From IMG/VR virus record IMGVR_UViG_3300042314_001187, positions 1-64,000 of that record: DNA of 64,000 nucleotides. One strand, 5' to 3'. A model generated the notes under the pieces. It saw only the letters and a program-made list of their open reading frames with translations. It was not told where the DNA came from and searched no databases. This document shows positions 3,777 to 44,223 of the stretch, one piece after another. Origin of the DNA: an uncultured virus (IMG/VR IMGVR_UViG_3300042314_001187). Its lineage: Duplodnaviria; Heunggongvirae; Uroviricota; Caudoviricetes. The translations under genes and the position numbers were made by a program. Every line of letters begins with the position of its first letter. Position 1 is the stretch's first letter.

Positions 3777-4713
3777 ATTTTGATTCTTTAATCATTTTTT
3801 TTACTTTACTATCGTGTTTCTCAATTTTAGAAATTCTATCCTCAACATCTTTATTTTTTGACAATATATCCCGTAATCTATTATTATCAAAAGGTTTTGG
3901 AACATCATTTTTTTCTAAAAATTCATCAATCATCTTTTCAGTAATTTTAGCCGGGTCAACACCAACCTCTGAAATGAACTTTTCTTTTAAATGTGGTGGG
4001 ATTACTCTTTTCTTAATTTCCAATTTAATTTCACCAGGTTTAACCACATTTTGTTCTAAATAATAAACCGTATAACCAACATCATCAGGTTTATTAGCGG
4101 TTAAATCAACATCGTAATGATTTGTAACAACTTCAGACCCATCATATTTATCAACTACCTCAAATAACCCTCTAACCAAAACATGTCTCGTACCTTTAGT
4201 TTTATATTCTTCAGGATTATCCAAAACATCATCCAATAATTTATGGATAACTTGTCTTTGTTCTTTCTCGGTGTCTAAACCGAGAATATCTTGAGTTATT
4301 TCAGGTGACCAAGTTAATAAAATATGTTTTCTTGGTTCAAATGTTAATGGGTCATACATTGTCGGACCCATAGCCGCACCATGCTTAACAGGTTTAATTA
4401 ATTGACTTGGGTCATACATTTCAGGAGTTAAAGATAATGATAATAAATAACATCTACCCTTAAATTCCATTAAATCGGATAATTTAATAGTTTCAGTCGT
4501 ATAAATCTTATCTTTTTTACCCTTAACTAACGGCATAGTTAAAATATCTAACGAATCACATTTATCAAATTCATCACATTCTTTAATGATGTTTTTATAC
4601 TTATCCAATTCTACACCATAAAGACAAGTTTCATCAACAAATGATGAATTAATTAAATTTAGGGTGTTCTTTTTACTTAATACCGCAACTTCTAAAAATT
4701 CTTTTAATTTCAT
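3766..4713 (-). CDS. hypothetical protein
   Basis: 315-aa ORF tightly packed in the operon; internal TPEMYDP / PTMYDP duplication. Confidence 0.75.
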   Translation of the reverse strand: MKLKEFLEVAVLSKKNTLNLINSSFVDETCLYGVELDKYKNIIKECDEFDKCDSLDILTMPLVKGKKDKIYTTETIKLSDLMEFKGRCYLLSLSLTPEMYDPSQLIKPVKHGAAMGPTMYDPLTFEPRKHILLTWSPEITQDILGLDTEKEQRQVIHKLLDDVLDNPEEYKTKGTRHVLVRGLFEVVDKYDGSEVVTNHYDVDLTANKPDDVGYTVYYLEQNVVKPGEIKLEIKKRVIPPHLKEKFISEVGVDPAKITEKMIDEFLEKNDVPKPFDNNRLRDILSKNKDVEDRISKIEKHDSKVKKMIKESKYGK

Positions 4714-6432: not shown

Positions 6433-7335
6433 TTAATCTTTTATATTATAATAATAATCATTAATTTCACCTCTTAAATCACAAACGTCTTTATCATCAG
6501 GTAATTTCAATATTTTTATTTTACCATATAACCCACCACCATTAAGTTCGTGATACAATTTTACTGCATTATACCAAGCATCACCATCTAACGCAATTAT
6601 CACATTACCCATTGCTCTTTGATATATCGTATCAAATAACTTTTCAGACATATGTTTACCCAACATAGCTATACTATTAGGTAAAAAGAAACCATCAAAG
6701 ACCCCTTCAACTAAGAAGATATCTTGATTCCAATTAATTAAACTTTCATTGAAAATTATCTTATCCTTCTCAGCTTCGGGGTTTTTATATTTAGCTCTAG
6801 TGTTTGGTATCCAACTTCTTGCTATAAAATAGTTTAACTCACCTGATTCAGTATATGAGGGAACAATAACTCTCCCCCCAAATTCACCATTAGAACAAAA
6901 ACCTATTTTATATTTTTCAATAATTTCTTTGGTAATACCTCGACTAGTAAGGTAAGTATATGCTTGTCTTCTAATTGGGTGAGACTCACTTACGTCTTTA
7001 AATAATTTAAATTCATTAGGTAATCTCAGTTTTTCTTTCCTAACTTCTTTTGGTTTAAACTCTTCAGGTTGGAGAACATTATACACTTTCTTTTGACTCT
7101 TATTTCCGTATTTATCAAATAATTTACCCAAAGGTCCGTGAGTCCCATTAACGTCACCACAACTCCAACATTTATAAACATGTGAGAAATAATTCACCTC
7201 AAGATTACCTTTGTGTCTGTCATCATCACATTCAGGACAATCAAACGATATTTGACCTTTTGATTCATAATGAAGATGTTCATCCCCAAGAACATCACGT
7301 AATAAATCCACTAATATTTCACCATCATCTGACAT
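6433..7335 (-). CDS. DNA primase (zinc-binding domain + TOPRIM)
   Basis: CPEC...CWSC zinc domain, YLTSRGI, LVEGVFD, ALDGDA, DVCD. Confidence 0.9.
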   Translation of the reverse strand: MSDDGEILVDLLRDVLGDEHLHYESKGQISFDCPECDDDRHKGNLEVNYFSHVYKCWSCGDVNGTHGPLGKLFDKYGNKSQKKVYNVLQPEEFKPKEVRKEKLRLPNEFKLFKDVSESHPIRRQAYTYLTSRGITKEIIEKYKIGFCSNGEFGGRVIVPSYTESGELNYFIARSWIPNTRAKYKNPEAEKDKIIFNESLINWNQDIFLVEGVFDGFFLPNSIAMLGKHMSEKLFDTIYQRAMGNVIIALDGDAWYNAVKLYHELNGGGLYGKIKILKLPDDKDVCDLRGEINDYYYNIKD

Positions 7336-7639: not shown

Positions 7640-8767
7640 ATGAGTTGTCCATCTACATATTGTATAAGTAATACAAGTTTTTCAACATATAATGGTATAT
7701 ATAATTCTTCAGGAACTTACAACGGTCGTGATTCGTGGTCAGGTCAATCCAACGGATATTATATCTATTTTAACACAGGAACAACTCAATGGTGTTTATC
7801 AAATGTGCTAAACGGAACTTGTCTTTTATCTGGAAAATCACCTTGTAGCTCAAGTTGCCCCGATTTATTTAGTGGTTACTTATCATCAGGTACTTGTCCT
7901 ACACCAACACCAACACCAACTGTAAACTGTTCTGTTTTAGATTTTAATTCTTTTTTTGACTGTGTACCCGTTAATTTTGTCACACCTACACAAACACCTA
8001 CACAAACCAAAACACCAACACCAACACCAACAAGTACCGATTTTTGTGGTTTACTTAACGTTGATGTAACCGTAAATAATGTAACACCAAGTCCAACACA
8101 AACACCAACACAAACACCAACAACATCAAAACCTGTTAATAGAGATAACACATTTAACGGTGACGTAACATTTAACACAATCAACACTAACTTTAATTGT
8201 CCTACTAGTAAACAATTTAGTGATTGTAACGACCCTAACACAACTTACTCAACAACCGACGTTTTAATTGTTCCAAATGGAACACCAATAACTAAATATA
8301 TGGTATTTAACGCCCTTGTTGACGGTGATACTAAATGTATATCATATATTGGATTAACAACCGACATTATTGGGGGTAATTCGATAAGATTAAATTCAAA
8401 CTCATTAGGTTTTTCTAATCTAGGTGGTTGTAGTTTTTGTCAAACAACACCAATGCCAACCCCAACACAAACGATAACCCCATCAAAAACACCAACTCAA
8501 ACCCCAACACAAACGATAACCCCATCAAAAACACCAACTCAAACACCTACACAAACAAATACACAAACTCAAACACCTACACAAACACCTACACCAAGTT
8601 TTACTCCAACTCAAACACCTACACAAACAAATACACCAAGTTTTACCCCTACACAAACAAATACACCAAGTTTTACCCCTACACAAACACAAACACCAAC
8701 TTCAACCCCGTTACCGGGTAATTGTGACTCATCAGGTTATTCTTACATATATTCACCAGCAACTTAA
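7640..8767 (+). CDS. Cys-rich modular protein with Thr/Pro linkers, putative virion fibre or decoration
   Basis: 375 aa; Cys-rich modules separated by TPTQTP repeats; tandem 42-bp and 30-bp DNA repeats at ~8460-8680. Confidence 0.75.
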   Translation: MSCPSTYCISNTSFSTYNGIYNSSGTYNGRDSWSGQSNGYYIYFNTGTTQWCLSNVLNGTCLLSGKSPCSSSCPDLFSGYLSSGTCPTPTPTPTVNCSVLDFNSFFDCVPVNFVTPTQTPTQTKTPTPTPTSTDFCGLLNVDVTVNNVTPSPTQTPTQTPTTSKPVNRDNTFNGDVTFNTINTNFNCPTSKQFSDCNDPNTTYSTTDVLIVPNGTPITKYMVFNALVDGDTKCISYIGLTTDIIGGNSIRLNSNSLGFSNLGGCSFCQTTPMPTPTQTITPSKTPTQTPTQTITPSKTPTQTPTQTNTQTQTPTQTPTPSFTPTQTPTQTNTPSFTPTQTNTPSFTPTQTQTPTSTPLPGNCDSSGYSYIYSPAT

Positions 8768-13256: not shown

Positions 13257-15896
13257 ATGACATCAATTCAGATTACAGATATTACAGGATTATCATTCCC
13301 ATATAATATATATGTATGTGACGTATTCGGTAATCAATGTATCTTAGTTGCAACAGTTGACACAAACATACCTCCGACTAATCAAATATATTTACCCCCA
13401 TTATTTAACACCGCACCTGCCGTTGGTGTTAGAATAATTTCACACGATTGTGAAAGATTTGAAATAGTTTATTGTTACTTAGTATTAACCAAAACACCAA
13501 CCCCTACCCCAACAATCACTCCTACAGTTACACCATCAAATACTCAAACACCAACAGTTACACCTACGTATACACAAACACCAACAGTTACACCTACGTA
13601 TACACAAACACCAACTCAAACCAATACTATTACACCAACTAATACGGAGACACCAACACAAACACCAACCCCAACTAACACAATTACACCGACTAATACT
13701 GAAACTCAAACACAAACTCCTACTCAAACTAATACTATCACACCAACTAATACTGAAACTCCAACACAAACCCCTACACCAACTAATACTATCACACCAA
13801 CTAATACGGAGACACCAACACAAACACCAACGAATACTATTACACCTACGAACACAGAAACACCAACACAAACTCCGACCAACACAATTACCCCAACAAA
13901 TACAATTACACCTACGAACACTGAAACACCAACTCAAACTCCAACTAACACAATTACCCCAACAAATACAATTACACCTACGAACACAGAAACACCAACT
14001 CAAACGCCGACTAACACAATAACATCAACTAACACTGAAACTCCAACACAAACTCCAACAGTAACTGAAACACCAACTCAAACTCCAACAAATACGATAA
14101 CATCAACTAATACTGAAACACCAACTCAAACTCCAACAAATACGATAACATCAACTAATACTGAAACACCAACTCAAACTCCAACTAACACAATAACCCC
14201 AACTGTTACTGAAACTCCAACTCAAACACCAACAAATACAATAACATCAACTAATACTGAGACACCAACACAAACACCAACAAATACAATAACATCAACT
14301 AATACTGAGACACCAACACAAACTCCGACCAACACAATTACCCCAACAAATACAATTACACCTACGAACACTGAAACCCCAACACAAACGCCGACTAACA
14401 CTGAAACTCCAACACAAACGCCTACAAATACAATTACACCTACGAACACTGAAACCCCAACTCAAACACCGACTAATACGATAACATCAACTAATACTGA
14501 GACACCAACACAAACCCCAACGAATACTATAACTCCAACGAATACTATTACACCCACGAACACTGAAACACCAACTCAAACACCAACAAATACAATTACA
14601 CCTACGAACACTGAAACCCCAACTCAAACACCAACTAATACGATAACATCAACTAATACTGAAACCCCAACACAAACACCAACTAACACAATTACACCTA
14701 CGAACACAGAAACCCCAACTCAAACACCAACTAACACAATTACACCTACGAACACAGAAACCCCAACTCAAACACCAACAAATACAATTACACCAACTAA
14801 TACAGAAACCCCAACACAAACACCAACGAATACTATTACACCAACGAATACAGAAACTCCAACCCAAACTCCAACAAATACAATTACACCAACGAATACA
14901 GAAACTCCAACCCAAACACCAACTAACACAATAACATCAACTGTTACGGAAACTCCAACCCAAACACCAACTAACACAATTACACCAACTAACACTGAAA
15001 CACCTACAAATACCCCAACACCAACTAACACAATTACACCAACTAACACCGAAACACCCACAAATACCCCTACACCAACTAACACAATTACCCCTACTAA
15101 TACTATCACCCAAACCCCTACTAATACTATCACTCAAACACCTACAAATACTATCACCCAAACACCAACAAACACAGAAACTCCGACTCAAACGCCAACA
15201 AATACAATAACACCGACAAATACAATAACATCAACAGTAACTAAAACACCTACCCAAACGCCAACAAATACAATAACACCAACACCAACAACTATTTATG
15301 TTATTGCCGAAGCATACCCTTGTTGTGGGACATACGTCACATATGATGTTATTAGTATTCCTATCACATATGCCGGAGTTGACGCTAATTATGTTGTTGT
15401 CGCAACTAATGGATATTGTTATAAAGTTGGGACATATCCAGCAATAGGTTCACCAACCATTGTTTGGGATAACACTAAACCTGTTTACCCTCAAGTTGAT
15501 GGTGATTTTGATTGCTTATCTTGTACTTCATCAAACCCTTGTCCAACACCGACACCAACACCAACAACAACCAATACTCAAACACCGACAAGAACTGTAA
15601 CTCCGACTAACACCATCACACCAACTAACACCATCACACCAACTAACACTGTTACCCCAACAAATAGTATTACACCAACAAATAGTATTACACCAACTAA
15701 CACACAAACCCCAACAAATAGTATAACACCAACTAACACACAAACCCCATCATACACACCAAGTCAAACCCCATCATACACACCTTCAAGTACACCAACA
15801 CCAACACCTACAACATTGACAGGTAATTTATTATTACTACAGACAGGTGATTACATTATACTACAAGACGGTACAGGATTTATAGAATTACAATAA
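13257..15896 (+). CDS. mucin/extensin-like Thr/Pro-repeat protein, putative virion fibre
   Basis: 879 aa: ~75-aa N-domain, ~600 aa of TNTITPTNTETPTQTP-type repeats, Cys-rich module, second T/P tract, C-terminal LLLQTGDYIILQDG motif. Confidence 0.85.
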   Translation: MTSIQITDITGLSFPYNIYVCDVFGNQCILVATVDTNIPPTNQIYLPPLFNTAPAVGVRIISHDCERFEIVYCYLVLTKTPTPTPTITPTVTPSNTQTPTVTPTYTQTPTVTPTYTQTPTQTNTITPTNTETPTQTPTPTNTITPTNTETQTQTPTQTNTITPTNTETPTQTPTPTNTITPTNTETPTQTPTNTITPTNTETPTQTPTNTITPTNTITPTNTETPTQTPTNTITPTNTITPTNTETPTQTPTNTITSTNTETPTQTPTVTETPTQTPTNTITSTNTETPTQTPTNTITSTNTETPTQTPTNTITPTVTETPTQTPTNTITSTNTETPTQTPTNTITSTNTETPTQTPTNTITPTNTITPTNTETPTQTPTNTETPTQTPTNTITPTNTETPTQTPTNTITSTNTETPTQTPTNTITPTNTITPTNTETPTQTPTNTITPTNTETPTQTPTNTITSTNTETPTQTPTNTITPTNTETPTQTPTNTITPTNTETPTQTPTNTITPTNTETPTQTPTNTITPTNTETPTQTPTNTITPTNTETPTQTPTNTITSTVTETPTQTPTNTITPTNTETPTNTPTPTNTITPTNTETPTNTPTPTNTITPTNTITQTPTNTITQTPTNTITQTPTNTETPTQTPTNTITPTNTITSTVTKTPTQTPTNTITPTPTTIYVIAEAYPCCGTYVTYDVISIPITYAGVDANYVVVATNGYCYKVGTYPAIGSPTIVWDNTKPVYPQVDGDFDCLSCTSSNPCPTPTPTPTTTNTQTPTRTVTPTNTITPTNTITPTNTVTPTNSITPTNSITPTNTQTPTNSITPTNTQTPSYTPSQTPSYTPSSTPTPTPTTLTGNLLLLQTGDYIILQDGTGFIELQ
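13490..15290 (+). repeat. coding tandem repeat, ~48-bp (16-codon) imperfect unit
   Basis: Roughly 30+ imperfect copies encoding TNTITPTNTETPTQTP, with third-position variation and A/C-rich, G-poor composition. Confidence 0.9.
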
Positions 15897-16598: not shown

Positions 16599-19031
16599 TT
16601 AAAAATCAAATTTAATTAAAAACTGTTGAATCCCTTGTCTTAAAACGGGAGACTGTAGTTTTGATACAATCATAAGATTTTTATCAGAATCGTAAAGACC
16701 AAGTTCAGTAATATATGGTTTTGTTCCCGTATTCCACGTAGGATTTGATGAGGTCTGAAATTCAGAGTTAGATAAATTCAGTTTATAGACCATTTCATAT
16801 ATGGTCGCTTGTATATCAGTTTCTAAAGACCCATAGAAATAATATTCATCACCAAAGTTTAATTGTAGTCCCGTAGAACCTTCCTGTGTAATATCAATAT
16901 AATCACCTAAATCATAAATATCATTTACCGCAGCATCATACAATTCTTTAGTAATAACAAATGTACTACCAGTAATTGCATCCTGAGTAATGTAACCATT
17001 GATTGTATTTGCACTTAAAACATCAGTCATATCAATAACCCTCCAACTATCAGATTGTGGTCGATTACCTGTTGTAACTTTTTGACAAATAATTTCAATT
17101 TTTTCAGCAAAAAATCCTTGTTTAAACGTATCTTCGTAATAATCCAAACAAGGGAAACCTGTACTAAATCTAACACCAACATTCTCAGAGTTTGAAGGGT
17201 TACAAACAACATCAGGTCCGGTTATTTTTGTATAATAATTACAATGTAATGAATTTGTAAATGCCGTTGTATTTGTAAACCTATACGTAACAAACATAGT
17301 CTCATTTGAATTTGTTAAAACACCTAATGAACTACCTAAACTATTACAAGTGTTAGGTGTTGATAAAAATAATTTAGGTGCCGGTAAAGTCCAATTTCGA
17401 TTTGATTTATAAGACATTGCAGCCAATAATTCTTCGTCATCTATAATGATAATCCTATCATCAGGGAAGACTTTTCCAACTCTGTTAGGATAACCATCAG
17501 GATTTATATTTGTATCCCATAAATGATAATATCTAATACCCGGTGAATTCATATCCTCATTCTTAGTTGATTGTATATATCGTTCTTGAAATAACACAAC
17601 ACTAGGGTCTTCAAACCCTGGAGGGTCAACCCAAAAAGTTTCACCCATACAACATTCAGGATTTTTATGCCACATTAACCAAGGCAAATGTAATTTAAAA
17701 TTCCTTGCTTGTCCCGTAGTATCATAAGGAGCCGTTGGGTCATATGGTTGTAACGCGAATTTTTCCCCATAGAATAAATCAATTGTTTGATTTGTATAAT
17801 GAATTATACCAATCGCCTTTTGTTCTTCAGGTTCAACTTTAACAATTTCCGCAAATGAATTGTAATAATACGTATCCGTAGTTTCTGCACTAAATTGATT
17901 ACTTATGAAAAAAGTTTGTCCACTATTTGACATATAACCCAAATATTCTTTAGTTCCCAAATAATTAACCGAACCAAATTGTGGGTAATCTTTATAAACA
18001 CCCGAATCTAATCCAGCTAAATTTTCAGACCAAGGAATATTCATATTCCAAACTTTAACGTCAAACTCATCTTGAGAACAAACCGATTCAAAATTAATGA
18101 TATCATCATTATAATGATTCAATGGAGTTATACTATCATATAAATCAGTCATTTTTTTAGGATAAACCAACGCCCTCGCATAACAACTCACGAATGTAAT
18201 ATTTGAAAAGTCAGGAGTAGTTCTATCTAACGTTATTTTATTACCACACACATCAACTATCCTATACGTTAATATTGAATAACAAGACGCCATTGACATC
18301 ACACATTCAGTTTTTAATGGTGCCGGTGTTGGGTCGGGACAATAAGATGCCGAAGGTGATGGTGTAGGTGTAGGTGACGCACAAGGACTACCTGGTGATG
18401 GTGGTGCCGATGGGGTTGGTGTTGGTGTTGAGTACATACTCGGTGTTGGTGTTGGTGTTGGTAAATTTTCACACCCACAATTTGACGCACCTAAATTATC
18501 TATGTATAACGTAATAAAATCACCCCTTTCAAATTGAGTATACTGAACGGGATTACAAGAGTCATTTAATAATTGTAGTGTCGTCCCACCTGTAAAACTA
18601 GACATATTAACAACATAATTTGATGTTTTAACATAATCATTACCAGTTGATGCACTCCAACTAGTTGGTAAAACACTTGTATCACCTGTGAAAAAACCTC
18701 TCATAGCCGCAGTATTATAAATTGGACTTATAACAGAATCCATATATGGTATACCATAAGTGTTTCCATTATTACCATCAACATAATACGGATATTTAAC
18801 GTTTTGTTTATTCGATTCAGGAACACCACTAGAATTCTGAGCGTTAAAACCTGATTCTAATATCATAGTATTACTGATTAAATAATTCGAGGGTAATGTG
18901 TTATACAACATTTCACTATCCCCTACTTGGAAAAAACTAATATTAAACTTACCTTGTGACAACATTTGTCTTGCGGTATCTGTTAATTTACTATTTATTA
19001 ATCCTGTTGTATTTTTTAAAATATATCCCAT
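16599..19031 (-). CDS. virion structural protein; tail-fibre-anchor (P2 gpH N-terminal/DUF3751-like) halves at both ends, internal Pro/Thr/Ser tract
   Basis: N-term KLTDTARQMLSQGKFNISFFQVGDS; C-term ITELGLYDSDKNLMIVSKLQSP; internal PTPTPSAPPSPGSP. Confidence 0.6.
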   Translation of the reverse strand: MGYILKNTTGLINSKLTDTARQMLSQGKFNISFFQVGDSEMLYNTLPSNYLISNTMILESGFNAQNSSGVPESNKQNVKYPYYVDGNNGNTYGIPYMDSVISPIYNTAAMRGFFTGDTSVLPTSWSASTGNDYVKTSNYVVNMSSFTGGTTLQLLNDSCNPVQYTQFERGDFITLYIDNLGASNCGCENLPTPTPTPSMYSTPTPTPSAPPSPGSPCASPTPTPSPSASYCPDPTPAPLKTECVMSMASCYSILTYRIVDVCGNKITLDRTTPDFSNITFVSCYARALVYPKKMTDLYDSITPLNHYNDDIINFESVCSQDEFDVKVWNMNIPWSENLAGLDSGVYKDYPQFGSVNYLGTKEYLGYMSNSGQTFFISNQFSAETTDTYYYNSFAEIVKVEPEEQKAIGIIHYTNQTIDLFYGEKFALQPYDPTAPYDTTGQARNFKLHLPWLMWHKNPECCMGETFWVDPPGFEDPSVVLFQERYIQSTKNEDMNSPGIRYYHLWDTNINPDGYPNRVGKVFPDDRIIIIDDEELLAAMSYKSNRNWTLPAPKLFLSTPNTCNSLGSSLGVLTNSNETMFVTYRFTNTTAFTNSLHCNYYTKITGPDVVCNPSNSENVGVRFSTGFPCLDYYEDTFKQGFFAEKIEIICQKVTTGNRPQSDSWRVIDMTDVLSANTINGYITQDAITGSTFVITKELYDAAVNDIYDLGDYIDITQEGSTGLQLNFGDEYYFYGSLETDIQATIYEMVYKLNLSNSEFQTSSNPTWNTGTKPYITELGLYDSDKNLMIVSKLQSPVLRQGIQQFLIKFDF

Positions 19032-19049: not shown

Positions 19050-20132
19050 TTAACTTCTAGTATAGAAGTATTCCCAATTTGATACCGAACAACAAATACA
19101 ACCTTCAATATTTAGACCTGTAAGACTATATTTATTTGTTGTTGAGAAATAAGCATTACAACAATTTAAAGCAGTATTCGACTGTTGAAAACTTAAAGGA
19201 CCTAACGATAATGTCGATGGTGCAGGATTACTACAGGTTAATTGATATGTTGGTATTACCGTAATTTCATAGGTATCTGAATTAGTATACGATAAATTAG
19301 TATAATTATACTCATATTCAGTAGTATATAATTGAAATTCTTGACACGATGGTGAGGTATTTGTTGTTGTTGTTGTTGCAGTATTATCCGTATAGTTTGT
19401 TATTACAACACCATTCTTTTTAACTTGAGGATTAAATGACGATGTTGCCGAATTCGAATACGGTGATTTAACAAATGTACCTCCAAGATTTAAGTTAAAA
19501 TTAATACTAACACCATTAGGTAATGGTGGTGTCACAGTAACACTATATTTAAATTCTTCAACTCGTGGATTATTTACAGTTATCACTGTTGAACTTATTT
19601 CTGTTAACTTAATAACGTAATTAACTGATTCTATTAGAGCCGGAATTTCAACTAATTTACTAAAAATTGTACCTTCACTATCCTTAATCTTAACTGTTAA
19701 ACTTAAATCACCACACAAACCATCTTTAAATGGTGAATTACCATATGTAACACCATTATCGAATGAATACTGATACGGTGGTTGACCCCCTTCACCATAA
19801 AGAGTGATATTAGCATCACATTCACAAGACGGGTTATTTTTAACAACAATCATTGTTAATTCTTCATTATCTGAACATTCACCCTGTGTTGCAGTTATTT
19901 CATATTCCCTACCAACCCAAGTCCAATTCCCATTAATTGGTGGACTAGCGGGATTAATATTTATTACAGTATCAAACAAATTATATGTTGTACTAGAAAA
20001 TCTCCAACAATTTGGTGTTAATGTTGTATCCCAAATTATTTTAATTTGAGTATCATCCGATAACCACGATTGTTTACCATTATAATACCCATCACAATTA
20101 AAATGGAACTTATCTAAATCAAAAAAATACAT
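19050..20132 (-). CDS. beta-rich structural protein with SprB-like repeat; probable C-terminal part of a split gene
   Basis: GGQPPYQYSFDNG...VKIKDSEG; begins MYFFDL, as does 21583..22602. Confidence 0.7.
   Translation of the reverse strand: MYFFDLDKFHFNCDGYYNGKQSWLSDDTQIKIIWDTTLTPNCWRFSSTTYNLFDTVININPASPPINGNWTWVGREYEITATQGECSDNEELTMIVVKNNPSCECDANITLYGEGGQPPYQYSFDNGVTYGNSPFKDGLCGDLSLTVKIKDSEGTIFSKLVEIPALIESVNYVIKLTEISSTVITVNNPRVEEFKYSVTVTPPLPNGVSINFNLNLGGTFVKSPYSNSATSSFNPQVKKNGVVITNYTDNTATTTTTNTSPSCQEFQLYTTEYEYNYTNLSYTNSDTYEITVIPTYQLTCSNPAPSTLSLGPLSFQQSNTALNCCNAYFSTTNKYSLTGLNIEGCICCSVSNWEYFYTRS
20113..20132 (-). repeat. 20-bp direct repeat, copy 1 (ATGTATTTTTTTGATTTAGA)
   Basis: Exact match to 22583-22602; both copies are the first 20 nt of an ORF. 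Confidence 0.9.
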
Positions 20133-20172: not shown

Positions 20173-20541
20173 TCAATAATATCCACCCGTATCAATGGGT
20201 GTAAAATCCAAACAGAAATCAACACAAGGTGGTAATGTTGTTGTTGTTGTGGTTGATGTTGTTGTCGTGGTTACACTTAACACACAAGTACTTTTAATGA
20301 CATAATCACCATTTGAATCTGTAACAGTTGCGGTATATGACCCAACACTTAAATTAGTAATTGTTTGTGTTAGACTACCATTAGCCCAAGTTATTGAATA
20401 TGGCGGCGTACCACCATTGATAACTAAACTAGCAATACCATCTGACGCAGTTATTGTCGACGGATTTGTCGAATTACAAGTAACAGACATTGGGAATATT
20501 GTTAATACCCCACATTGATTCCTATTTGTTGATTCTGGCAT
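20173..20541 (-). CDS. SprB-repeat protein with poly-Thr linker; probable N-terminal part of a split gene
   Basis: GGTPPYSITWANG...NLSVGSYTATVTDSNG, poly-T tract; ends with TGA TAA TAG. Confidence 0.75.
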   Translation of the reverse strand: MPESTNRNQCGVLTIFPMSVTCNSTNPSTITASDGIASLVINGGTPPYSITWANGSLTQTITNLSVGSYTATVTDSNGDYVIKSTCVLSVTTTTTSTTTTTTLPPCVDFCLDFTPIDTGGYY

Positions 20542-20553: not shown

Positions 20554-21543
20554 TTATAATAAATAATCAGTTTTTTGGTTTTTTATCAATGATTTCATAA
20601 CATCCACATACTTTTTTGTTGAACTATTATCTTCTATGTAGTCAAAATAATTATCATCCTCACTTAAAAGTTTAAGTGGGTTAACATTTATAAATTCACC
20701 TTTATAAAATTTGGTTTTACTTAAATCGTAAGTAACTCCAGCCATATGTAATATCGGTTTATTTTCATATTGTTCTATGGTGTCCGTAGCCCAAGAAAAC
20801 GATAATTTTTTAGTGACACGTGTTTCATTACCTCTTAACCAAAGATTCCATAATACCGCCCACATATCTGAAGTCCACATTTGAATCTCGTGCTGAATGG
20901 GATGAGTTTTATGAAAGTTAAATAACATTTTGTACAAATTTTCACTATCTTCAAAAACTTTCTCCCAATACAAATAATCAGTATTTTTAATTAGATATTG
21001 AGCACCTCCAGAATTAAGTTGATTTTCTTTAACAATCTCAGGTGATATTCCAATAACGTTACACATCCTGTCTAATAATTCACCTTCATATAATTGAATA
21101 TGGTTATCCTCATAACGTTTTGAACATTCTTTAATGTAATCATACCCAATGTATGAGATAGTGTCCGACAAATAACTAAAATCGTCATTTAATAGACTCT
21201 CAAAATCCGGTAACTCCCTAAAAATAATATCAGAATCGTGATAAAAATAACATTTACCTAATTCAGGGTATTCTTTTAACCATTTAGATAAAATTAAAGG
21301 TCTTAAAGTCGGGATATATCGTTTATCAATTCGAGTATCTTCATAATGATGAACATTAACCCCTAATTGTTTTAACATTAAAGATTCTTCACTAGGTTGA
21401 GAACCATTTAAAATAACAAACAAAACATGAATTTGATGAGGTTTAACCCCATTACTAATAAAATTATATATGTAAATTTTAGTTTGCCAATGAAAATACG
21501 AAATGTCAGGTTGTGCAGATACAAAAACTAATTCATCAATCAT
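20554..21543 (-). CDS. GT-A fold glycosyltransferase resembling peptide O-glycosyltransferases (GT96 SERGT1 / GT95 HPAT-like)
   Basis: YFHWQT, RYIPTLRP..LSKWL, YHDSDIIF (DxD), GGAQY, WTSDMWA, ILHMAG, in the same order as the plant YFDWQT, YPAINKP, DADM, GG, WISEMY, LHY motifs (recalled). Confidence 0.7.
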   Translation of the reverse strand: MIDELVFVSAQPDISYFHWQTKIYIYNFISNGVKPHQIHVLFVILNGSQPSEESLMLKQLGVNVHHYEDTRIDKRYIPTLRPLILSKWLKEYPELGKCYFYHDSDIIFRELPDFESLLNDDFSYLSDTISYIGYDYIKECSKRYEDNHIQLYEGELLDRMCNVIGISPEIVKENQLNSGGAQYLIKNTDYLYWEKVFEDSENLYKMLFNFHKTHPIQHEIQMWTSDMWAVLWNLWLRGNETRVTKKLSFSWATDTIEQYENKPILHMAGVTYDLSKTKFYKGEFINVNPLKLLSEDDNYFDYIEDNSSTKKYVDVMKSLIKNQKTDYLL

Positions 21544-21582: not shown

Positions 21583-22602
21583 TTAAATATCAAACGTTGG
21601 AAACGTATCTCCATCAACACATTTTATTAACTGTTTTAATAAACATTGTTGGTGATACATATTTTGCACAAAAGTATTAAAATTAGCTTGTGTAGTATTT
21701 GCAAAATTATTTCCAGCATCAACCCAAAAATTCGACACACTTTGAGTTGTTGTTATAAATTGATTATAATACGTATCACATTGAGGACAAGCTTTTGGTG
21801 ATGTTACACTACCAGTACCCATAAATTGCCAATTTTGACCGTTTAAATCACCTCTCCATACTTTACTAGTTGTTGATGACGATTGAGCAACATTAGTTAC
21901 ATTATATGGTCCTGCACTACCTCTTAGGTTTGATTTTGCTCTAGTTTCAAACCATTGATATTGACTATCTCTATAAAAGTTAGCTAACCAAGACGATGAG
22001 GTTGTTGTTGAACCAGCAATACCACCTTCAACTAAAATTTTAGTATAACGTTTTGCACCACCTATAGTGTCATTGTCTGATTTAACGTAAAGATTTTGTG
22101 TACTACCGTCAGTATTAGTTAGTCCAGGTTCTAACCAATTATCGCCAGGATTTCCACACAAAATTGCCGGTAAAGGTGAATTAGTTGGTGTAGTAACCAC
22201 ATTTCCACGACCACTACCTAACATAATATAACCATTAGTACTTACATAAAGAGCATTGGATGCTACACCCGCCATTTTATATGTTGTTGATAATCCTATT
22301 GGTGTGTCAGTCCAACCATTGTCAAACGTCGAAACAGTTCCATTTGTAAACCCACCATAATATGTATCATAATTATCATAATTTGAGGGCCAAACTAAAT
22401 TTAGACTTGAGTCATATTGATACGTAAATGATGTAGTATTGGAATTTTCATACCAATCCGTAACAGCATCTAATAACGCATCTTTAAACGTCATAAATGA
22501 AATACCAAAATCCTGCCAACCAAGAGGTTCTCCAAATAAATCTATAGAATCAGACCCAATTGCCTGTTTAATACACCAATCTTCTAAATCAAAAAAATAC
22601 AT
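21583..22602 (-). CDS. putative structural/adhesin protein with nidogen (NIDO)-like beta domain
   Basis: PIGL...G...LYVSTNGYIMLG pattern; 339 aa. Confidence 0.55.
   Translation of the reverse strand: MYFFDLEDWCIKQAIGSDSIDLFGEPLGWQDFGISFMTFKDALLDAVTDWYENSNTTSFTYQYDSSLNLVWPSNYDNYDTYYGGFTNGTVSTFDNGWTDTPIGLSTTYKMAGVASNALYVSTNGYIMLGSGRGNVVTTPTNSPLPAILCGNPGDNWLEPGLTNTDGSTQNLYVKSDNDTIGGAKRYTKILVEGGIAGSTTTSSSWLANFYRDSQYQWFETRAKSNLRGSAGPYNVTNVAQSSSTTSKVWRGDLNGQNWQFMGTGSVTSPKACPQCDTYYNQFITTTQSVSNFWVDAGNNFANTTQANFNTFVQNMYHQQCLLKQLIKCVDGDTFPTFDI
22583..22602 (-). repeat. 20-bp direct repeat, copy 2
   Basis: Exact match to 20113-20132; spacing 2470 bp. Confidence 0.9.
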
Positions 22603-22625: not shown

Positions 22626-24770
22626 TTAACTTGTCTCACAAGATATTTCGTAATTGATTTTTAATTTAACTAAGATATTAGAATCTAATAAATTAACATC
22701 TGAACCACAATCAGATGTGATAGTAATTTTATTGGTGTTTGTATTAATTGTAACATTACCAATACCATCATAACCCAACAATAAATTTCTAACAGTAGTT
22801 GCAAATAATGTCTCACTTGGTGCGTCCGTTAATGATGTAGTCGTATAAAATATTAAACTTTCAGTTACCTCATTAACAATTGTAATTGCTTCAAAAGTAG
22901 CTTCATTTAAAATACAATTATTTTCATCAACAGTTAAATCCACATAACCTTCATTTAACATTAATATCGGTGTTTTTTCAAGTAATTCACCATTATTCAT
23001 AAATTCACTATCACATAAATTATAAATACCATAAGTAATTGCACAATTTACACCAACTAACACTATAGTCCTAATTTTAATACAACCATTATTATCAGTT
23101 ACTTTAGCCGTATATGTTCCCGCTGACAAACTTGTTACAAGTAAACCCGTCTGACCGTTAACATTATCACTCCATTCTATAGTGTAAGGAGCTTTACCTT
23201 TTGTTATAAACAATTGAATATAACCATTATTTGATGAATTCGCATTACCAGAATTATAAATGAAATCAACACCCTCTGAACTATTAACTAACACTGTTGA
23301 AGACTGAATACAATTTTCACCTGTATCTGTAACATTAACGGTGTAACTACCTGAAGGTAATGAACTAAATGTTGCGGTAGTTAAATTTGTCTCTATACTC
23401 TCACCATTCAATTCATACACATATGGGCCTGAACCACCAACAACATTAATTTTTACAATACCATCATTTTTAGAACAAGTTGTACCCGTTACTACAAAAG
23501 TAAATGTGAATACTTCTTCATTTAATATTTCATATTGATTAACATATTGACATCCACTACCGTCCGTAATTGAAAAAGTGTATGTATCGGAAGCCAATTG
23601 TGTAAAAGTGTATGTTGGTAGTGTCGTACTAATTGAATTCTCAACACCCGTTGTGTTAACTAACTTGTACACATATGGTGGTGTTCCTGATGAAATATTA
23701 ACATTTAATGTCCCTTGATTATTACCACACGATGAATTAGTTGTAGTTATTGACACAATATTAAATGATGATGGTGTGATTAACGCAACACTACTAATAA
23801 ACGAACATAATCCAGCATCCTGAACAAAATAATTAAAGTTACCAGCACCCAATCCATTAAAACTAATTGTCCTATCAAAAGTTACTGAGGTAGTACCGTT
23901 TGAACCCGAATAGAAAAATGGTGGAGTTCCACCTGAAAGTATTATTTCAATTGACCCATTATTACCAAAACAAGATGGTTGAGTCACAAAAAGACCCGCT
24001 TGTCCAACTAACGGAACTTTTAACACATCCGCAGTTTTAACAACAACACAACCTGAATTGTCACTAACAGTTACACTATAAGACCCCTGAGTTAAACCAC
24101 TTATTGACGATGTTGTTTTACCATTCGACCATAAATAAGTGTAAGGTGGTGAACCATTAATATTATTAATAAAAATTTTACCCGAATTAACGTTACAACC
24201 GGCATCATTAACAACATACAAATCATAATCTAAATTTGTCGAATCTTGGATAATAACACTATTTGTTGTTGCAGTACAACCACCATTATCAACAACTTTC
24301 ATATAATACGTTCCGGCACTTAACCCTTGAAATGAACGTCCTGACACTAAATTCGTTGTTCCCGATGTAATATAACCTAAAGTTGTGTGATATAGATAAT
24401 ATAAATTACTACCATAATCATATTGCGTGTAAGCACTTAGTGAACCATTGTTTAAATCACAAACAGTGTTAGTCACACCTGTTATTGTTGTACATAACCC
24501 ACTTGACACATAAATTGACGCTATCTGACTTTGATTTTCAGGGTCAATACAACTATCTTTAATTAAAAATGAGTACGTTCCAGCGGTTAAAGATGTTGCA
24601 GTGTACGCTGTAACTCCCGGTCCTAAAAAAACAGTACTTAAAGGTGGATTTACCCACTCAATTCTATAATCAGGAGCACTTCCTGTAATTGTAATACTGA
24701 ACGAACCACCACTAATATTACTACAGTCACCTGTTACACCAACAAGACTATAATTTAAACTACAACTCAT
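22626..24770 (-). CDS. SprB-repeat (Ig-like) fibre/adhesin protein
   Basis: About 7 repeats of C..NNG.I...GG.PPY.Y.W.NG...L..G.Y.V.V.D..GC. Confidence 0.8.
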   Translation of the reverse strand: MSCSLNYSLVGVTGDCSNISGGSFSITITGSAPDYRIEWVNPPLSTVFLGPGVTAYTATSLTAGTYSFLIKDSCIDPENQSQIASIYVSSGLCTTITGVTNTVCDLNNGSLSAYTQYDYGSNLYYLYHTTLGYITSGTTNLVSGRSFQGLSAGTYYMKVVDNGGCTATTNSVIIQDSTNLDYDLYVVNDAGCNVNSGKIFINNINGSPPYTYLWSNGKTTSSISGLTQGSYSVTVSDNSGCVVVKTADVLKVPLVGQAGLFVTQPSCFGNNGSIEIILSGGTPPFFYSGSNGTTSVTFDRTISFNGLGAGNFNYFVQDAGLCSFISSVALITPSSFNIVSITTTNSSCGNNQGTLNVNISSGTPPYVYKLVNTTGVENSISTTLPTYTFTQLASDTYTFSITDGSGCQYVNQYEILNEEVFTFTFVVTGTTCSKNDGIVKINVVGGSGPYVYELNGESIETNLTTATFSSLPSGSYTVNVTDTGENCIQSSTVLVNSSEGVDFIYNSGNANSSNNGYIQLFITKGKAPYTIEWSDNVNGQTGLLVTSLSAGTYTAKVTDNNGCIKIRTIVLVGVNCAITYGIYNLCDSEFMNNGELLEKTPILMLNEGYVDLTVDENNCILNEATFEAITIVNEVTESLIFYTTTSLTDAPSETLFATTVRNLLLGYDGIGNVTINTNTNKITITSDCGSDVNLLDSNILVKLKINYEISCETS

Positions 24771-38434: not shown

Positions 38435-40273
38435 TCAACTAAAATTAGTTACTGATAGATTCTTAACTCGAATATTAATATCGTTATTTGGATATCTAAT
38501 TTGGTACGTTTGACTTGGTTCTGCAAATATAGTTTCATCAATTAATTCAATTTCTCTAGTGTCTTTATCAAGATATCTTTGTGATGTTTGAGATGATGAG
38601 TATTGACCACCAACTTTATTAAATACTGATATACCAGCAACACTAACAACACCGTTAGTTGCTTGAATTAATCGTCTAATTTCAGAGACATTAACATTTT
38701 CACCCATTTGTCTATTACCTGGTTCAAAATAATCAGATACTATATTAATTACTTGAGTAATTAATGAACCTTGGTTTTGACTACTCTCCAAAACAACATC
38801 AATAGTAAAAGACAAATCAATAACATTAGCCACCTGAACCGAAATATAATCATTCATCATTCGATAGTTAGATAAGTAATTAGCCACATTATTTTTTAAT
38901 GTGTCAGAAACAATTTCAGTTAACTTACCATTCTCATCATATGATAACATTTTAATAACAACTTTGTTGTTTTCTTCCGTAATCGCAACTTTAGCAGGAG
39001 CACCAAATTGTGATGGCATTGTTCTAATTAAAGAATCATAATCGTTAACCGTAACTGCCCTGTTTTGAGCTGAGAAGTTAAACGCCACTAAGTTTCTAAC
39101 CTCTTCAATTGTTGGATAATCAGCTCCACCAATAGCCGCAGTTACGTTATTACAAGACAATGAGTTAACAACATTCGTGTTTACTGACTCAGATGGTCCG
39201 TTAACGAAAAATGATACAGTCCCAATTTGTGTAATAACATTAACACCCAAATTACTAACTTGACCTCCACCAACTCTATACTGAACGAATAGTGTTGTAT
39301 TTGATTTTAATGTACTACCTAACGCAAAGTTATTTGAATATTTGTATAAATTTAGATTATATCCGTTTCTAGCAAACTCTCTTAATTGTTCATCAGCAGA
39401 TTGATTACCACCTCCAAATGTCATTTTAAAATAACCTTCAGGTGTGAATTCAGTTATAAATTTATCATTTACCGACAAATATTTACCAACTTTAATACCA
39501 GGACTATCAGACACTTTAGTTGGGTCTTCAACGAATACTCTGTCTTCCGCCAACGCTTTAACCTCATACCATCTATTATCAAGCCCCAAAAACTCTTGGT
39601 TTGAAGGGACATTACCATATTGTGTTCCGTCTTTTAATAAAACACTTGTGACCCCCAAAACATTTTTGTCAGGTAAAAACACTTCATAGAAAGGTTTAAC
39701 ATCATTAGGTGTTATAACTTTTTTATATACTTTTGTAACTCCATTAACTACCGTCTCTCTTTTAACAATCGTATAATTTATTAACTTATTATTAGAGTCG
39801 AAATTAGGTATTTTTAAACGATTAGGAAAACCATCACCACTAATTGGTGATGCAAAATCAATATCATACACAGTTTCAAAAGCTTGTCCAGCACCATTCA
39901 CCTGAGAACCTCGTCTTAATATACCACAGTATCTTAAATCTTCTTTATCTCCGTAAGCCGGCACTGTAATTGATAAATCCACCAACGCAACTGAGGGTCT
40001 TTGACCCGGTATTTTTAAACCATAAGTTCTTGCGATATTATATATTGAAGACCTTTGTTGTGCAAATTGTAAAACCGTTTCTTGAATACTTCTATCAATA
40101 TTGAAGTGTAAGTTATCAGTAACTGCCGCGTTCAAATCTAAGAACACCGAGAAAATCGCCGCGTCATTAACGTTCTCAATTAAATCAGGATAATACGTTC
40201 TTGTAAAATTAATTAACTCAGTTCTTATTGACTGAAAATCTCTTGTAGTATACGAAATCTTTTTATTAGCCAT
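38435..40273 (-). CDS. baseplate wedge subunit (T4 gp6 / baseplate J-like)
   Basis: YTTRDFQSIRTEL, AQQRSSIYNIARTYG, YRVGGG..SN, GGAD, AQNRAVTVNDY. Confidence 0.9.
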   Translation of the reverse strand: MANKKISYTTRDFQSIRTELINFTRTYYPDLIENVNDAAIFSVFLDLNAAVTDNLHFNIDRSIQETVLQFAQQRSSIYNIARTYGLKIPGQRPSVALVDLSITVPAYGDKEDLRYCGILRRGSQVNGAGQAFETVYDIDFASPISGDGFPNRLKIPNFDSNNKLINYTIVKRETVVNGVTKVYKKVITPNDVKPFYEVFLPDKNVLGVTSVLLKDGTQYGNVPSNQEFLGLDNRWYEVKALAEDRVFVEDPTKVSDSPGIKVGKYLSVNDKFITEFTPEGYFKMTFGGGNQSADEQLREFARNGYNLNLYKYSNNFALGSTLKSNTTLFVQYRVGGGQVSNLGVNVITQIGTVSFFVNGPSESVNTNVVNSLSCNNVTAAIGGADYPTIEEVRNLVAFNFSAQNRAVTVNDYDSLIRTMPSQFGAPAKVAITEENNKVVIKMLSYDENGKLTEIVSDTLKNNVANYLSNYRMMNDYISVQVANVIDLSFTIDVVLESSQNQGSLITQVINIVSDYFEPGNRQMGENVNVSEIRRLIQATNGVVSVAGISVFNKVGGQYSSSQTSQRYLDKDTREIELIDETIFAEPSQTYQIRYPNNDINIRVKNLSVTNFS

Positions 40274-40274
40274 A

Positions 40275-40733
40275 TTATAAATTTATAATAACAAAATCAC
40301 TTGAGTTGAACGCGTCATCGTTTAACAAGTAATCAATTTTAATTTTTGCAGTGTGTTCTTTTGTCCCGATACCTGGCACTCTAAAAACTCGTTCATCATT
40401 ACCATTAACAAACGTTCCTTTATCTTCCTCACCCTCTGACGCTGGTGTTACCTCTAATTTAGTAATTGTAATACCGGGAATATATTCTTTAACAGAATCC
40501 CTAATTTCAGATTCTATTTGTGAAAAAGTTGGTCCATCTAATGGTTCAAATAAATACTCATATAATCTTGTCCCAAAATCAGGTAAATAATATCTAGTAC
40601 CTTTTCTCGTTAGTAATAAATGAATTAGATTTGAACGTATTTCTTCCCTATTCGTGTTTGATAAATCAAGATATTTACCATCATACGAATCCCTAAAGGG
40701 AAAATTAATACCATATGTTAATCCTTCTGCCAT
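40275..40733 (-). CDS. baseplate gp25/gpW-like protein
   Basis: IRSNLIHLLLTRKGTRYYLPDFGTRLYEYLFEP; start moved to MAEGL (40733) because the longer frame runs into a terminator. Confidence 0.9.
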   Translation of the reverse strand: MAEGLTYGINFPFRDSYDGKYLDLSNTNREEIRSNLIHLLLTRKGTRYYLPDFGTRLYEYLFEPLDGPTFSQIESEIRDSVKEYIPGITITKLEVTPASEGEEDKGTFVNGNDERVFRVPGIGTKEHTAKIKIDYLLNDDAFNSSDFVIINL

Positions 40734-40784
40734 ATAACATAAATATAATGTCGTTATGAATTTTTTGTATAACGTTCTAAAATA

Positions 40785-40813
40785 AAAAACTCTCGACATT
40801 GCCGAGAGTTTTT
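40785..40813 (-). terminator. intrinsic terminator after nrdA
   Basis: AAAAACTCTCG-ACATTGC-CGAGAGTTTTT hairpin with T-runs on both strands. Confidence 0.8.
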
Positions 40814-43244: not shown

Positions 43245-43262
43245 AATGATTATAATATTTTA

Positions 43263-44222
43263 TTAAAACTCATCAGTAAAAGAAATTGTTTCATTCAATT
43301 TCGCCTTTTGATATTCAAGTGTTCTATTTTCAAAGAAATTACCTTTAGTTTCAACCGCAATCTGTTCCATAAACTTGAAAGGTTGTTCTACATTAAATTC
43401 TTTACTACAACCTAACTTATATAATAAACCATCAACAACGAACTCTAAATATTGTTTCATTAAATTAGAATTCATCCCAATTAATGATACTGGTAGTGAT
43501 TCAGTTATAAACTCCTTTTCAATCTCTAAAGCTGAAAGTAATATTTCTTTAATTCTTTTCTCACTTGGTTTGTTAACAATATGGTTATTTAACAAGTGAA
43601 TTGCGAAATCACAATGAAGATTCTCATCTTTAAAAATTAATGAGTTAGCGTCACATAATCCTTGCATAATTCCTCTCGATTTTAACCAAAATATTGAACA
43701 GAACGAACCTGAAAAAAAGATTCCTTCAACAGCAACAAACGCTATCAATCGTTCTTGAAACGATGCGTTTTCAATCCAATCTAAAGCCCATTTAGCTTTT
43801 TTCTGAACTGCCGGTAGTCTGTCAATCGCGTGGAAACAATCATCCTTTTCTTTTGAGTCTGTGATATAAGTATCAATTAATAAAGAATAAGTTAAAGAAT
43901 GTTCATTCTCCATAGCAACTTGGAATCCATAGAAAAACTTAGCTTCCGGAAACTGTACCTCCCTTGCGAAGTTCTCAGCAATGTTTTCATTAACAATACC
44001 ATCAGATGCTGCAAAAAATGCTAAAATATTTTTAATGAAATATTTTTCATTATCTGATAAATTACTCCAATCTCTGATATCATCACTTAAATCAAATTCT
44101 TCTGCCGTCCAAAACGCCGCCTTGTGTTGTGCATAAAATTCCCAAATATCGTGATATTGGATAGGGAATACTACAAATCTATCAGGATTTGTTTCTAAAA
44201 TTGGTTCTACTTTATTTTCCAT
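43263..44222 (-). CDS. nrdB: class Ia ribonucleotide reductase beta subunit
   Basis: [41 protein letters not shown]; start moved to 44222 (MENK), just after the helicase stop. Confidence 0.95.
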
Positions 44223-44223
44223 A

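Follow-up and report, generated by a model that had tools for sequence, protein, structure and literature searches.

A phage-encoded soluble glycosyltransferase remotely related to HPAT and its proposed role in O-glycosylation of threonine-rich particle proteins

We wanted to know what a glycosyltransferase-like gene does when it lies among genes for fibre-like proteins of a phage, some of which are unusually rich in threonine and proline. The stretch of DNA analysed (the window) comprises 64,000 nucleotides, positions 1 to 64,000 of the IMG/VR record IMGVR_UViG_3300042314_001187, from an uncultured virus of the Caudoviricetes. The source record has 131,650 bases, is AT-rich (~31% GC) and is rated 45% complete by CheckV, which indicates that the phage is large. 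The gene in question occupies positions 20554-21543 of the window, and its product is referred to as P0001. A preliminary description made from the letters alone had proposed that this product resembles plant enzymes that glycosylate structural proteins and that it O-glycosylates the phage's own virion. In plants, HPAT (CAZy family GT95) and the peptidyl-serine α-galactosyltransferase SGT1 (GT96) glycosylate proline-rich extensins. We find that P0001 has a glycosyltransferase-A (GT-A) fold with a conserved DxD motif and histidine, that it is remotely akin to HPAT and that, across unrelated phages, its gene is gained and lost together with poly-threonine (poly-Thr) tracts. We consider it probable that P0001 is a soluble, metal-dependent transferase that O-glycosylates threonine-rich tracts of the phage's own particle proteins, a reading that draws on comparative sequence analysis.

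Fold and family of the enzyme

The open reading frame (ORF) starts with ATG, lies on the minus strand and encodes 329 amino acids; the plus strand of 20554-21543 contains many stops. The 329-residue ORF with a YHDSD motif that had been described at first is, in other words, present, on the minus strand. P0001 matched the function-unknown family phrog_4417 with an E value of 9.1e-66, residues 7-318 aligning with positions 3-290 of the 293-position profile. It matched no Pfam family at E ≤ 10, and hence no glycosyltransferase family including GT8, and neither a single-sequence phmmer search nor a profile search of PDB sequences returned anything significant. The phrog_4417-type family comprises at least 1,984 proteins at E ≤ 0.001 in a database reduced to 90% identity; 845 clusters are counted at 50% identity, and among the 120 members listed none had a Pfam domain or an informative name. 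An alignment of 52 family sequences (A1) formed the basis of the structural model and of the profile comparisons below. The five motifs quoted in the preliminary description are all present in P0001 and in the order claimed: YFHWQT at residue 16, YIPTLRP at 76, DSDI at 103 (within YHDSD), WTSDMW at 223 and LHM at 265. They are not chance strings, as they sit on columns of A1 that are invariant or nearly so (W19, Q20, Y76, D103, D105, W223, M227, W228 and H266).

The AlphaFold model of P0001 built on A1 had a predicted local distance difference test score (pLDDT) of 96.7 and a predicted template modelling score (pTM) of 0.93 and consisted of one globular GT-A domain from residue 1. When the model was aligned structurally with ~48,000 PDB representatives, independently of Foldseek, 112 chains scored Z ≥ 8, with GT-A transferases heading the list. 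The top match was glycogenin-1 (Z 15.5, root-mean-square deviation 3.5, 230 residues aligned), followed by Skp1 α-galactosyltransferase (6mw8, Z 14.5), the catalytic domain of UGGT (14.4), WbbM (14.1), LgtC (14.1), GlyE (13.9) and LARGE1 (13.5); the GT8-like matches as a group spanned Z 12.9-15.5 at a sequence identity of 6-12%. Foldseek returned 260 matches at E ≤ 0.001, with the same GT8-like group on top. Among predicted viral structures, the two clear matches were an uncharacterised phage protein and Orf49 of Lactobacillus phage LP65, followed by GT8-like enzymes of giant viruses. The YHDSD motif forms residues 101-105, directly after model strand E98-102; across the 52 sequences, D105 and H266 do not vary, and D103 is conserved to at least 90%. 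This DxD...His set (D103, D105 and H266) may correspond to the DxD...His metal site of GT8 enzymes. A search for a membrane segment in P0001 found none (the highest Kyte-Doolittle mean over 19 residues was 0.83), and since there is no hydrophobic segment, the enzyme should be soluble and presumably cytoplasmic. The model, Foldseek and the structural alignment agree with the glycosyltransferase identity first proposed from the letters, and we conclude that P0001 is, as modelled, a soluble GT-A glycosyltransferase closest to the retaining GT8-like enzymes. The preliminary description had counted a GT8-type best structural match against its proposal, and formally the best match is of this type. 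We do not regard the idea as refuted, because no chain in the fold-search lists was named GT95 or GT96, so that a fold of those families could not rank first, and because several of the top matches, namely glycogenin, Skp1 α-galactosyltransferase, UGGT, GlyE and LARGE1, act on proteins or protein-borne glycans, in part according to their entry titles.

A second glycosyltransferase domain was found in 13 of the 86 long family representatives that were scanned, with partners PF11397 (three proteins), GT2 (three), GT7C (four), GT6 (two) and GT29 (one); one of the PF11397 fusion proteins also carries O-FucT. This partnership with other transferases points to a part in glycan assembly. In the metagenomic representative P0224, the family domain is fused to radical-SAM and SPASM domains, a combination typical of maturases that modify peptides (ribosomally synthesized and post-translationally modified peptides, RiPPs).

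The nearest named sequence family is HPAT (PF23452), under which we take the GT96 enzyme SGT1 to fall. The kinship to GT95/GT96 proposed at the outset stands as a remote one to the HPAT family, and P0001 is not a member by the threshold of PF23452 itself. The PF23452 model had no match at E ≤ 10 in the whole record; of 64 short relatives scanned singly, two gave sub-threshold matches (12.6 and 13.5 bits versus a gathering cut-off of 23.9), as did two of the 52 rows of A1. Profile-profile comparison pointed to a remote relationship: with hhalign, A1 and a set of 31 bacterial PF23452 proteins gave 85% with E 6.3e-6 over 269 columns and aligned every quoted motif, and A1 against a two-sequence PF23452 profile gave 88%, the two comparisons spanning 248-269 columns at E values of about 1e-6. 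Residues W19/Q20 fall on W16/Q17 of PF23452, D103/D105 on D96/D98, W223-D226-M227 on W191-D194-M195, H266 on H232 and K281 on K248. In the control run, the real pair scored 77%, 30 column-shuffled alignments scored ≤1.0% and the reversed alignment 0.7%. All these comparisons used bacterial members of PF23452 only. Further, of 30 look-alike clusters in the ESM Atlas that have a family name, 19 fall into sets with PF23452 in 10-58% of their members, at scores of 0.96-0.97. A family-profile search for longer relatives, of the length of plant SGT1, found 53 proteins, all of them bacterial or metagenomic fusions and none from plants, which is weak evidence of absence. The two families also meet in bacterial genomes: two of five genomes with a P0001 relative hold a PF23452 gene above the cut-off, and in one of them the PF23452 gene (L378 2133-3266) lies directly upstream of the P0001 relative (3299-4258), PF23452 being rare in that phylum (one of 401 genomes, namely the starting genome). 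PqqD, a peptide-binding domain of RiPP pathways, is fused (as PF05402) to 104 of the 120 bacterial HPAT-family proteins listed. Gene content of this kind suggests that there may be bacterial peptide-glycosylating gene clusters that pair the HPAT family with the P0001 family. We conclude that, within the GT8-like GT-A fold, HPAT and the P0001 family are sister families and that the latter is not part of the former.

Poly-Thr tracts and the enzyme gene

We detected homologs of P0001 by tblastn in 77 phage records, all below 60% identity and mostly from phages of Gram-positive hosts; the hosts include Lactobacillus, Enterococcus, Staphylococcus, Lactococcus, Clostridium and Chryseobacterium, and no Mycobacterium phage was among the organism names tallied for these records. 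The closest homolog in an isolated phage is that of a Chryseobacterium phage, at 40.5% identity. Seven isolated carriers were examined (MA9V-3, phiFL1A, R3.3, nattely, vB-SscS-F1, TPWB06 and Iacchus), and all seven have a poly-Thr frame within ~3.5 kb of the enzyme gene, which in six of them is the adjacent frame. In Enterococcus phage phiFL1A, the enzyme gene lies between the major tail protein gene and tail chaperone-like genes. Poly-Thr occurs in just two frames of this 38.8-kb genome, those of the major head and major tail proteins, each of which has Thr runs at its end; the annotation of this phage lists 61 features and names no glycosyltransferase or base-hydroxymethylase. The enzyme gene follows the capsid-like gene in Lacticaseibacillus phage R3.3, which has C-terminal Thr runs on its capsid-like and tail-like proteins, and in Enterococcus phage nattely, which has them on a tail-tube-like protein. 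The runs are on the gene immediately upstream in Chryseobacterium phage MA9V-3 and at the C-terminus of the tail protein in Staphylococcus phage vB-SscS-F1 and Arcanobacterium phage TPWB06, and the 138-kb Lactobacillus myovirus Iacchus shows the pairing likewise. The enzyme gene is within the structural block in R3.3, nattely, vB-SscS-F1 and TPWB06 as well.

The enzyme and the tails are also absent together. The phiFL1A tail protein has homologs in 76 records, and in five relatives that lack the enzyme (Javan47, 315.6, Javan311, phiJL-1 and cIP1) the homologous capsid or tail proteins align to the C-terminus and have no Thr run; the enzyme profile found no match in the DNA fetched for these five phages, which for cIP1 covered 20.7 of 38 kb. 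Two phages of one genus, phiJL-1 and R3.3, differ in both the enzyme and the poly-Thr tails. We also noted short, almost pure-Thr frames in nattely (6698-6859), TPWB06 (L419, 9669-9932) and a further locus (L418, 9557-9931), which overlap or directly follow the end of a capsid-like or major tail gene in another frame, just upstream of the enzyme. By analogy, a programmed frameshift could lengthen the poly-Thr extension on some of the subunits; the SPP1 protein gp17.1* arises by such a frameshift extension.

The same pairing was seen in bacterial genomes and in scans made blind to the enzyme. We compared 80 bacterial genome contigs with a P0001 relative, 45 of them with a single-domain copy and 35 with a fused one. 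A poly-Thr ORF lies within 300 bp of 34 of the 45 single-domain copies and of one of the 35 fused copies, and this one exception consists of overlapping frames in a high-GC contig. A blind scan of IMG/VR for eight consecutive ACN codons returned 121 loci, five of which hold the enzyme, each time adjoining the poly-Thr ORF; the five enzymes are 31-45% identical to one another and 35-40% identical to P0001. Control scans found the enzyme in none of 120 poly-Asp/Glu loci and none of 120 poly-Lys/Asn loci (Fisher one-sided p = 0.004). A poly-Pro scan found it in one of 123 loci, on a contig identical to one of the five poly-Thr loci. In the IMG/VR contig L096/L472 (8489-13317 of L096), proteins encoded next to a relative of the enzyme join long poly-Thr to poly-Pro runs of at least ten residues that have single Thr spacers; going by their sequences, we read these proteins as an extreme extensin-like design.

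In the record analysed here, poly-Thr runs occur in only three frames, the longest of which is in P0005, whose gene comes 12 bp after that of the enzyme. Its tract, TTTTTSTTTTTT, is a 12-residue Thr/Ser run with 11 Thr. In the distant relatives L018, L020, L031 and L027, the P0005 module is the N-terminus of a single ORF of 464-539 amino acids that follows the enzyme; in this phage and its two closest relatives (L005 and L011) that ORF is split into an immunoglobulin-like (Ig-like) plus poly-Thr piece of 122-134 amino acids and a body of 360-381 amino acids. Because the split is kept in the two closest relatives, it is not an assembly error. The motif W(D/E)YFY(N/T)RS is the C-terminal end of P0006, the body of the split protein, and also of the small ORFs of L005 and L011. 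A complex prediction of P0001 with residues 70-122 of P0005, run without controls, gave a score of 0.02 and a mark of 0.32, which we weigh neither for nor against the pairing. The phage's own lineage is represented by 80 IMG/VR loci with 51-71% identity, of which 72 have a poly-Thr ORF, lying within 300 bp in 37. A broader count, in which a T/P-rich (threonine/proline-rich) ORF lies within 10 kb in 79 of the 80 related loci, was rejected as a test; the loci are one lineage and such ORFs are everywhere.

The Thr-Pro repeats of the window are connected with the enzyme less directly than poly-Thr. In eight orthologs of P0004, a larger protein encoded further along the same strand, the linker is of TPTPTPS type in four, poly-Thr in three (L032, L035 and L010) and mixed in one (L051). 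Because the orthologs swap the two at the same position, Thr-Pro and poly-Thr appear to be interchangeable there, and because this swap is the sole evidence, T/P repeats are tied to the enzyme only indirectly. The proposal that the phage O-glycosylates its own virion proteins thus holds in part: comparative genomics favours Thr-rich particle proteins, and the acceptor that tracks the enzyme is pure poly-Thr and not the TPTQTPTNTI repeat. The long Thr/Pro/Ser tracts attributed to four nearby genes are real in all four, except that the one at 20173-20541 is the single 12-residue run and not a long T/P repeat. The residues in T/P-rich sequence windows number 193 of 375 in P0002, 726 of 879 in P0003 (40.8% Thr and 15.7% Pro) and 58 of 810 in P0004; P0003 has no Pfam match, and its PHROG match is to the repeat itself only. 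The record has 11 T/P-rich ORFs in 131 kb.

Surroundings of the gene and other sugar genes of the record

The features of the window are collected in Table 1. The enzyme gene is part of a string on one strand, in the order P0007, a gap of 39 bp, the enzyme, 12 bp, P0005, 40 bp, P0006, 18 bp and P0004. Its placement inside a fibre/baseplate accessory operon is plausible and in part supported, by this tight string and by baseplate and Ig-like matches on the same strand, and most of the neighbours are without a family match. For the library scans, 38 ORFs of the record were compared with PHROGs and 78 with Pfam; a megablast search of the phage collection with a 10-kb piece of the window gave no match. 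P0006 and P0007 share the N-terminal start MYFFDL. GGTPPY Ig-like modules and SprB repeats occur at 22626-24770 and 20173-20541. Such modules and repeats are typical of gliding Bacteroidota, and their presence hints at a Bacteroidota host for the phage.

Table 1. Features of the window around the enzyme gene, with the basis of each assignment
Feature	Coordinates	Strand	Basis
Soluble GT-A glycosyltransferase P0001 (as modelled), 329 aa (amino acids), phrog_4417	20554..21543	-	PHROG E 9.1e-66, model, fold matches
P0005, 122 aa, best acceptor candidate: Ig-like (Hoc-like/SprB-like) domain, TTTTTSTTTTTT, short C-terminal piece	20173..20541	-	PHROG Hoc-like E 1.2e-5
P0006, 360 aa, body of downstream fibre-like protein	19050..20132	-	blastp vs downstream ORFs of relatives
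P0004, 810 aa, Thr-Pro/Ser-Pro linker at ~residues 190-240	16599..19031	-	translation, ortholog alignment
P0003, 879 aa, mucin-like TPTQTPTNTI repeat protein, possible further acceptor, divergent gene group	13257..15896	+	translation
P0002, 375 aa, Thr-Pro repeat tracts, possible further acceptor	7640..8767	+	translation
P0007, 339 aa, upstream neighbour in the enzyme's gene string	21583..22602	-	no PHROG/Pfam match
714-aa protein, SprB repeats and Ig-like domains, probably surface/fibre protein of the particle	22626..24770	-	Pfam SprB E 1.5e-25; PHROG Hoc-like and virion structural protein
Baseplate wedge genes, upstream end of same-strand late block	38435..40799	-	PHROG baseplate wedge; Pfam Baseplate_J

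Further along the window, positions 40830-49069 encode ribonucleotide reductase, a DnaB-like helicase, an exonuclease, a UvsX-like recombinase and SSB. This replication/nucleotide block is flanked by two sets of baseplate genes and giant structural ORFs (1919, 2366 and 1696 amino acids).

Outside the window, the record holds two more groups of sugar genes. A 3795-amino-acid ORF at 88772-100159 on the minus strand, with 1,901 residues in T/P-rich sequence windows, heads a series of same-strand genes, namely a PF11397 'GlcNAc' (N-acetylglucosamine) transferase (87472-88719, E 5.3e-70), a GT11 gene (86678-87457) and a GT25 gene (85930-86664), and the cluster continues with an HtrL_YibB-like gene (83339-85054) and a 213-amino-acid ORF with a TTTTTT run (82635-83276). 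PF11397 is a domain that is fused to the P0001 family in several metagenomic proteins. The second group, at ~111552-122758, contains a DegT-type aminotransferase fragment, a PhyH-like dioxygenase, a hexapeptide acyltransferase, three GT2-type genes and two RMNT/CmcI-like (sugar-O-methyltransferase-like) genes; a third gene of the latter kind lies at 65651-66277, between baseplate and tail-tube genes. The tail-tube-like ORF of the record (66388-66876) is not among the three poly-Thr frames. These additional sugar genes, as assigned by family match, strengthen the picture of a phage that may glycosylate mucin-like proteins. The record also encodes, at 75577-77136, a 519-amino-acid protein whose first half contains a complete Fe/Mn superoxide dismutase (Sod_Fe_N and Sod_Fe_C).

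Proposed role, alternatives and known systems

In the mechanism that we propose, a soluble, cytoplasmic, metal-dependent GT-A enzyme would use a nucleotide sugar and O-glycosylate threonines in Thr-rich tracts before or during particle assembly. The prime acceptor in this phage would be the Thr/Ser run of P0005, and the fibre-like proteins next to it probably offer more acceptors in their Thr-Pro linkers and repeats. P0001 would start a glycan rather than extend one and, judging by its GT8-like fold, would retain the configuration of the sugar; the HPAT and SGT enzymes are retaining enzymes. The resulting coat might serve as stiff mucin-like spacers, in adhesion or as shielding.

Several observations weigh against this proposal. 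We infer the acceptor from gene neighbourhood, and we likewise infer the standing of the neighbours as particle proteins, most of which have no family match. Within the same lineage, poly-Thr ORFs are missing altogether from 8 of the 80 loci, and 43 of the 80 have none within 300 bp; moreover, the counts in this lineage are not independent of one another, and T/P-rich ORFs are common throughout the genome. Among the 45 single-domain copies of bacteria, eleven lack a poly-Thr ORF within 300 bp, several of these contigs being very short. Since the fused cellular homologs (from Chitinophaga, Mucilaginibacter, Sphingobacterium and Acidimicrobiia) are without poly-Thr neighbours in 34 of 35 cases, the domain as such is not tied to a poly-Thr acceptor. 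Conversely, 116 of the 121 poly-Thr loci found by the blind scan have no enzyme of the P0001 family in reach, so that most poly-Thr tracts manage without it. Finally, frequent fusion to other transferases is as compatible with an enzyme that extends glycans as with one that starts them, and the PF11397 transferase beside the giant T/P-rich ORF could be what acts on the T/P repeats.

The last two points bear on an alternative that we think unlikely, namely that P0001 belongs to the same particle-glycosylation pathway and adds a later sugar to a Thr glycan begun by a phage PF11397-type enzyme or by a host enzyme. This would account for the fusion of 13 of 86 long representatives to another glycosyltransferase domain, three of them to PF11397, and for the place of the PF11397 enzyme directly after the 3795-amino-acid T/P-rich ORF and before the GT11, GT25 and HtrL-like genes; further, the top fold matches Skp1 α-galactosyltransferase, LARGE1 and XXYLT1 extend existing glycans. 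However, phiFL1A has poly-Thr-tailed capsid and tail proteins and not one feature named glycosyltransferase among its 61, and the nearest family, HPAT, is named for direct action on a peptide residue, its bacterial members being mostly fused to PqqD. The absence of poly-Thr neighbours from 34 of the 35 fused homologs, which sit in chromosomes of Bacteroidota and Actinomycetota, would also suit an enzyme that modifies a polymer of the host envelope (teichoic acid, cell-wall polysaccharide, lipopolysaccharide (LPS) or capsule), for example to block superinfection, the poly-Thr tracts then being plain flexible linkers. The fold class does include LPS and O-antigen enzymes (LgtC and WbbM, each at Z 14.1), and one source names some of the fused homologs 'galactosyltransferase-related protein'. 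We nevertheless judge an envelope target to be rather improbable: the phage gene sits in late structural blocks and not in a lysogeny or early module, P0001 has no membrane segment, and such a target leaves unexplained why the enzyme and the poly-Thr tails of homologous capsid and tail proteins are present or absent together.

Glycosylation of modified bases of the phage DNA as a protection against restriction, in the manner of the T4 glucosyltransferases, seems to us very improbable indeed. Phage glycosyltransferases often act in this way, according to one source (PMC12619734), and the record has dUTPase/dCTP-deaminase-like and ribonucleotide reductase genes. However, no hydroxymethylase-type family was found among the 38 ORFs compared with PHROGs or the 78 compared with Pfam, none of the 61 features of phiFL1A bears such a name, and the position in the structural module and the link with poly-Thr would both be left without explanation.

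O-glycosylation of the phage's own Thr-rich particle proteins can be joined with the other observations into a wider reading, to which we would give an even chance: a portable two-part glyco-tag found across phyla. A short poly-Thr or Thr-Pro tract would be graftable onto any exposed capsid, tail-tube or fibre protein, and a dedicated soluble transferase, an ancient relative of the plant HPAT/SGT and bacterial HPAT-PqqD enzymes, would recognise the tract and start an O-glycan on it. Jumbo phages such as this one would have elaborated the tag into mucins of hundreds to thousands of Thr-Pro residues served by batteries of extending transferases, and the coat would serve adhesion, stability or evasion of host and animal defences.

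We found no paper on the P0001 family or on glycosylated poly-Thr tails of phages in a full-text search that was mostly without subscription journals, and to our knowledge some mycobacteriophages are the only phages for which self-glycosylation of the particle has been demonstrated. If our proposal is true, phage self-glycosylation would be far more widespread than this (at least 1,984 proteins, with homologs in 77 phage records), and a simple sequence rule, a poly-Thr tract together with the enzyme gene, would predict sugar-coated particle proteins. It would bear on phage therapy, through immune recognition and stability, and on dairy and fermentation phages; it would help to read the low-complexity linkers of phage fibres, and it might provide a glycan-tagging tool for bacteria. 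The link with HPAT and HPAT-PqqD proteins would place extensin-type protein glycosylation in an older and broader enzyme lineage. The hypothesis is directly testable with phages already in culture.

Compared with known enzymes, P0001 is like the GT8-like group (glycogenin, Skp1 α-galactosyltransferase, LgtC, GlyE and, in GT24, UGGT) in its GT-A fold, with a DxD motif and a later invariant His that may correspond to the GT8 metal site, and unlike the GT8 family in that it has no sequence match to the GT8 Pfam model. GlyE belongs to the pneumococcal pathway for serine-rich-repeat proteins. The chlorella virus PBCV-1 enzyme A64R (PDB 2p6w) is likewise a virus-encoded soluble GT-A protein, which according to its entry title glycosylates the virus's own major capsid protein; its match to P0001 is much weaker (Z 10.8) than those of the GT8 group, its virus is a giant virus of eukaryotes, and we know of no poly-Thr tag in PBCV-1 capsid glycosylation. 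Like the plant HPAT/SGT enzymes, which are type II Golgi membrane proteins, P0001 would have as its targets hydroxyl residues of repetitive structural proteins that are rich in Pro/Thr/Ser; unlike them, it is soluble and has no membrane anchor, and its likely acceptor is Thr and not hydroxyproline or Ser. A deep-learning survey predicts that GT95 has a GT-A-like fold and that the fold of GT96 is novel (PMC8476585).

The closest functional parallel is the glycosylation of mycobacteriophage virions (Freeman et al. 2023), in which phage-encoded transferases are reported to modify their own particle, with the glycans at the C-termini of capsid and tail-tube subunits (PMC12619734). As in that system, the transferase gene lies inside the structural block, here and in relatives, and phiFL1A, R3.3 and nattely carry poly-Thr tails at the C-terminal sites that bear the glycans in mycobacteriophages. 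In contrast to the mycobacteriophage system, whose hosts are Actinomycetes, the P0001 family spans phages of Bacillota, Bacteroidota and uncultured aquatic hosts, and the acceptor, as read from genes alone, would be a recognisable poly-Thr tag, borne in this window by fibre-like proteins. A system of this kind is already known from the mycobacteriophages, and the novelty here would lie in the family of the enzyme, in an acceptor tag that can be recognised and in a much broader range of hosts.

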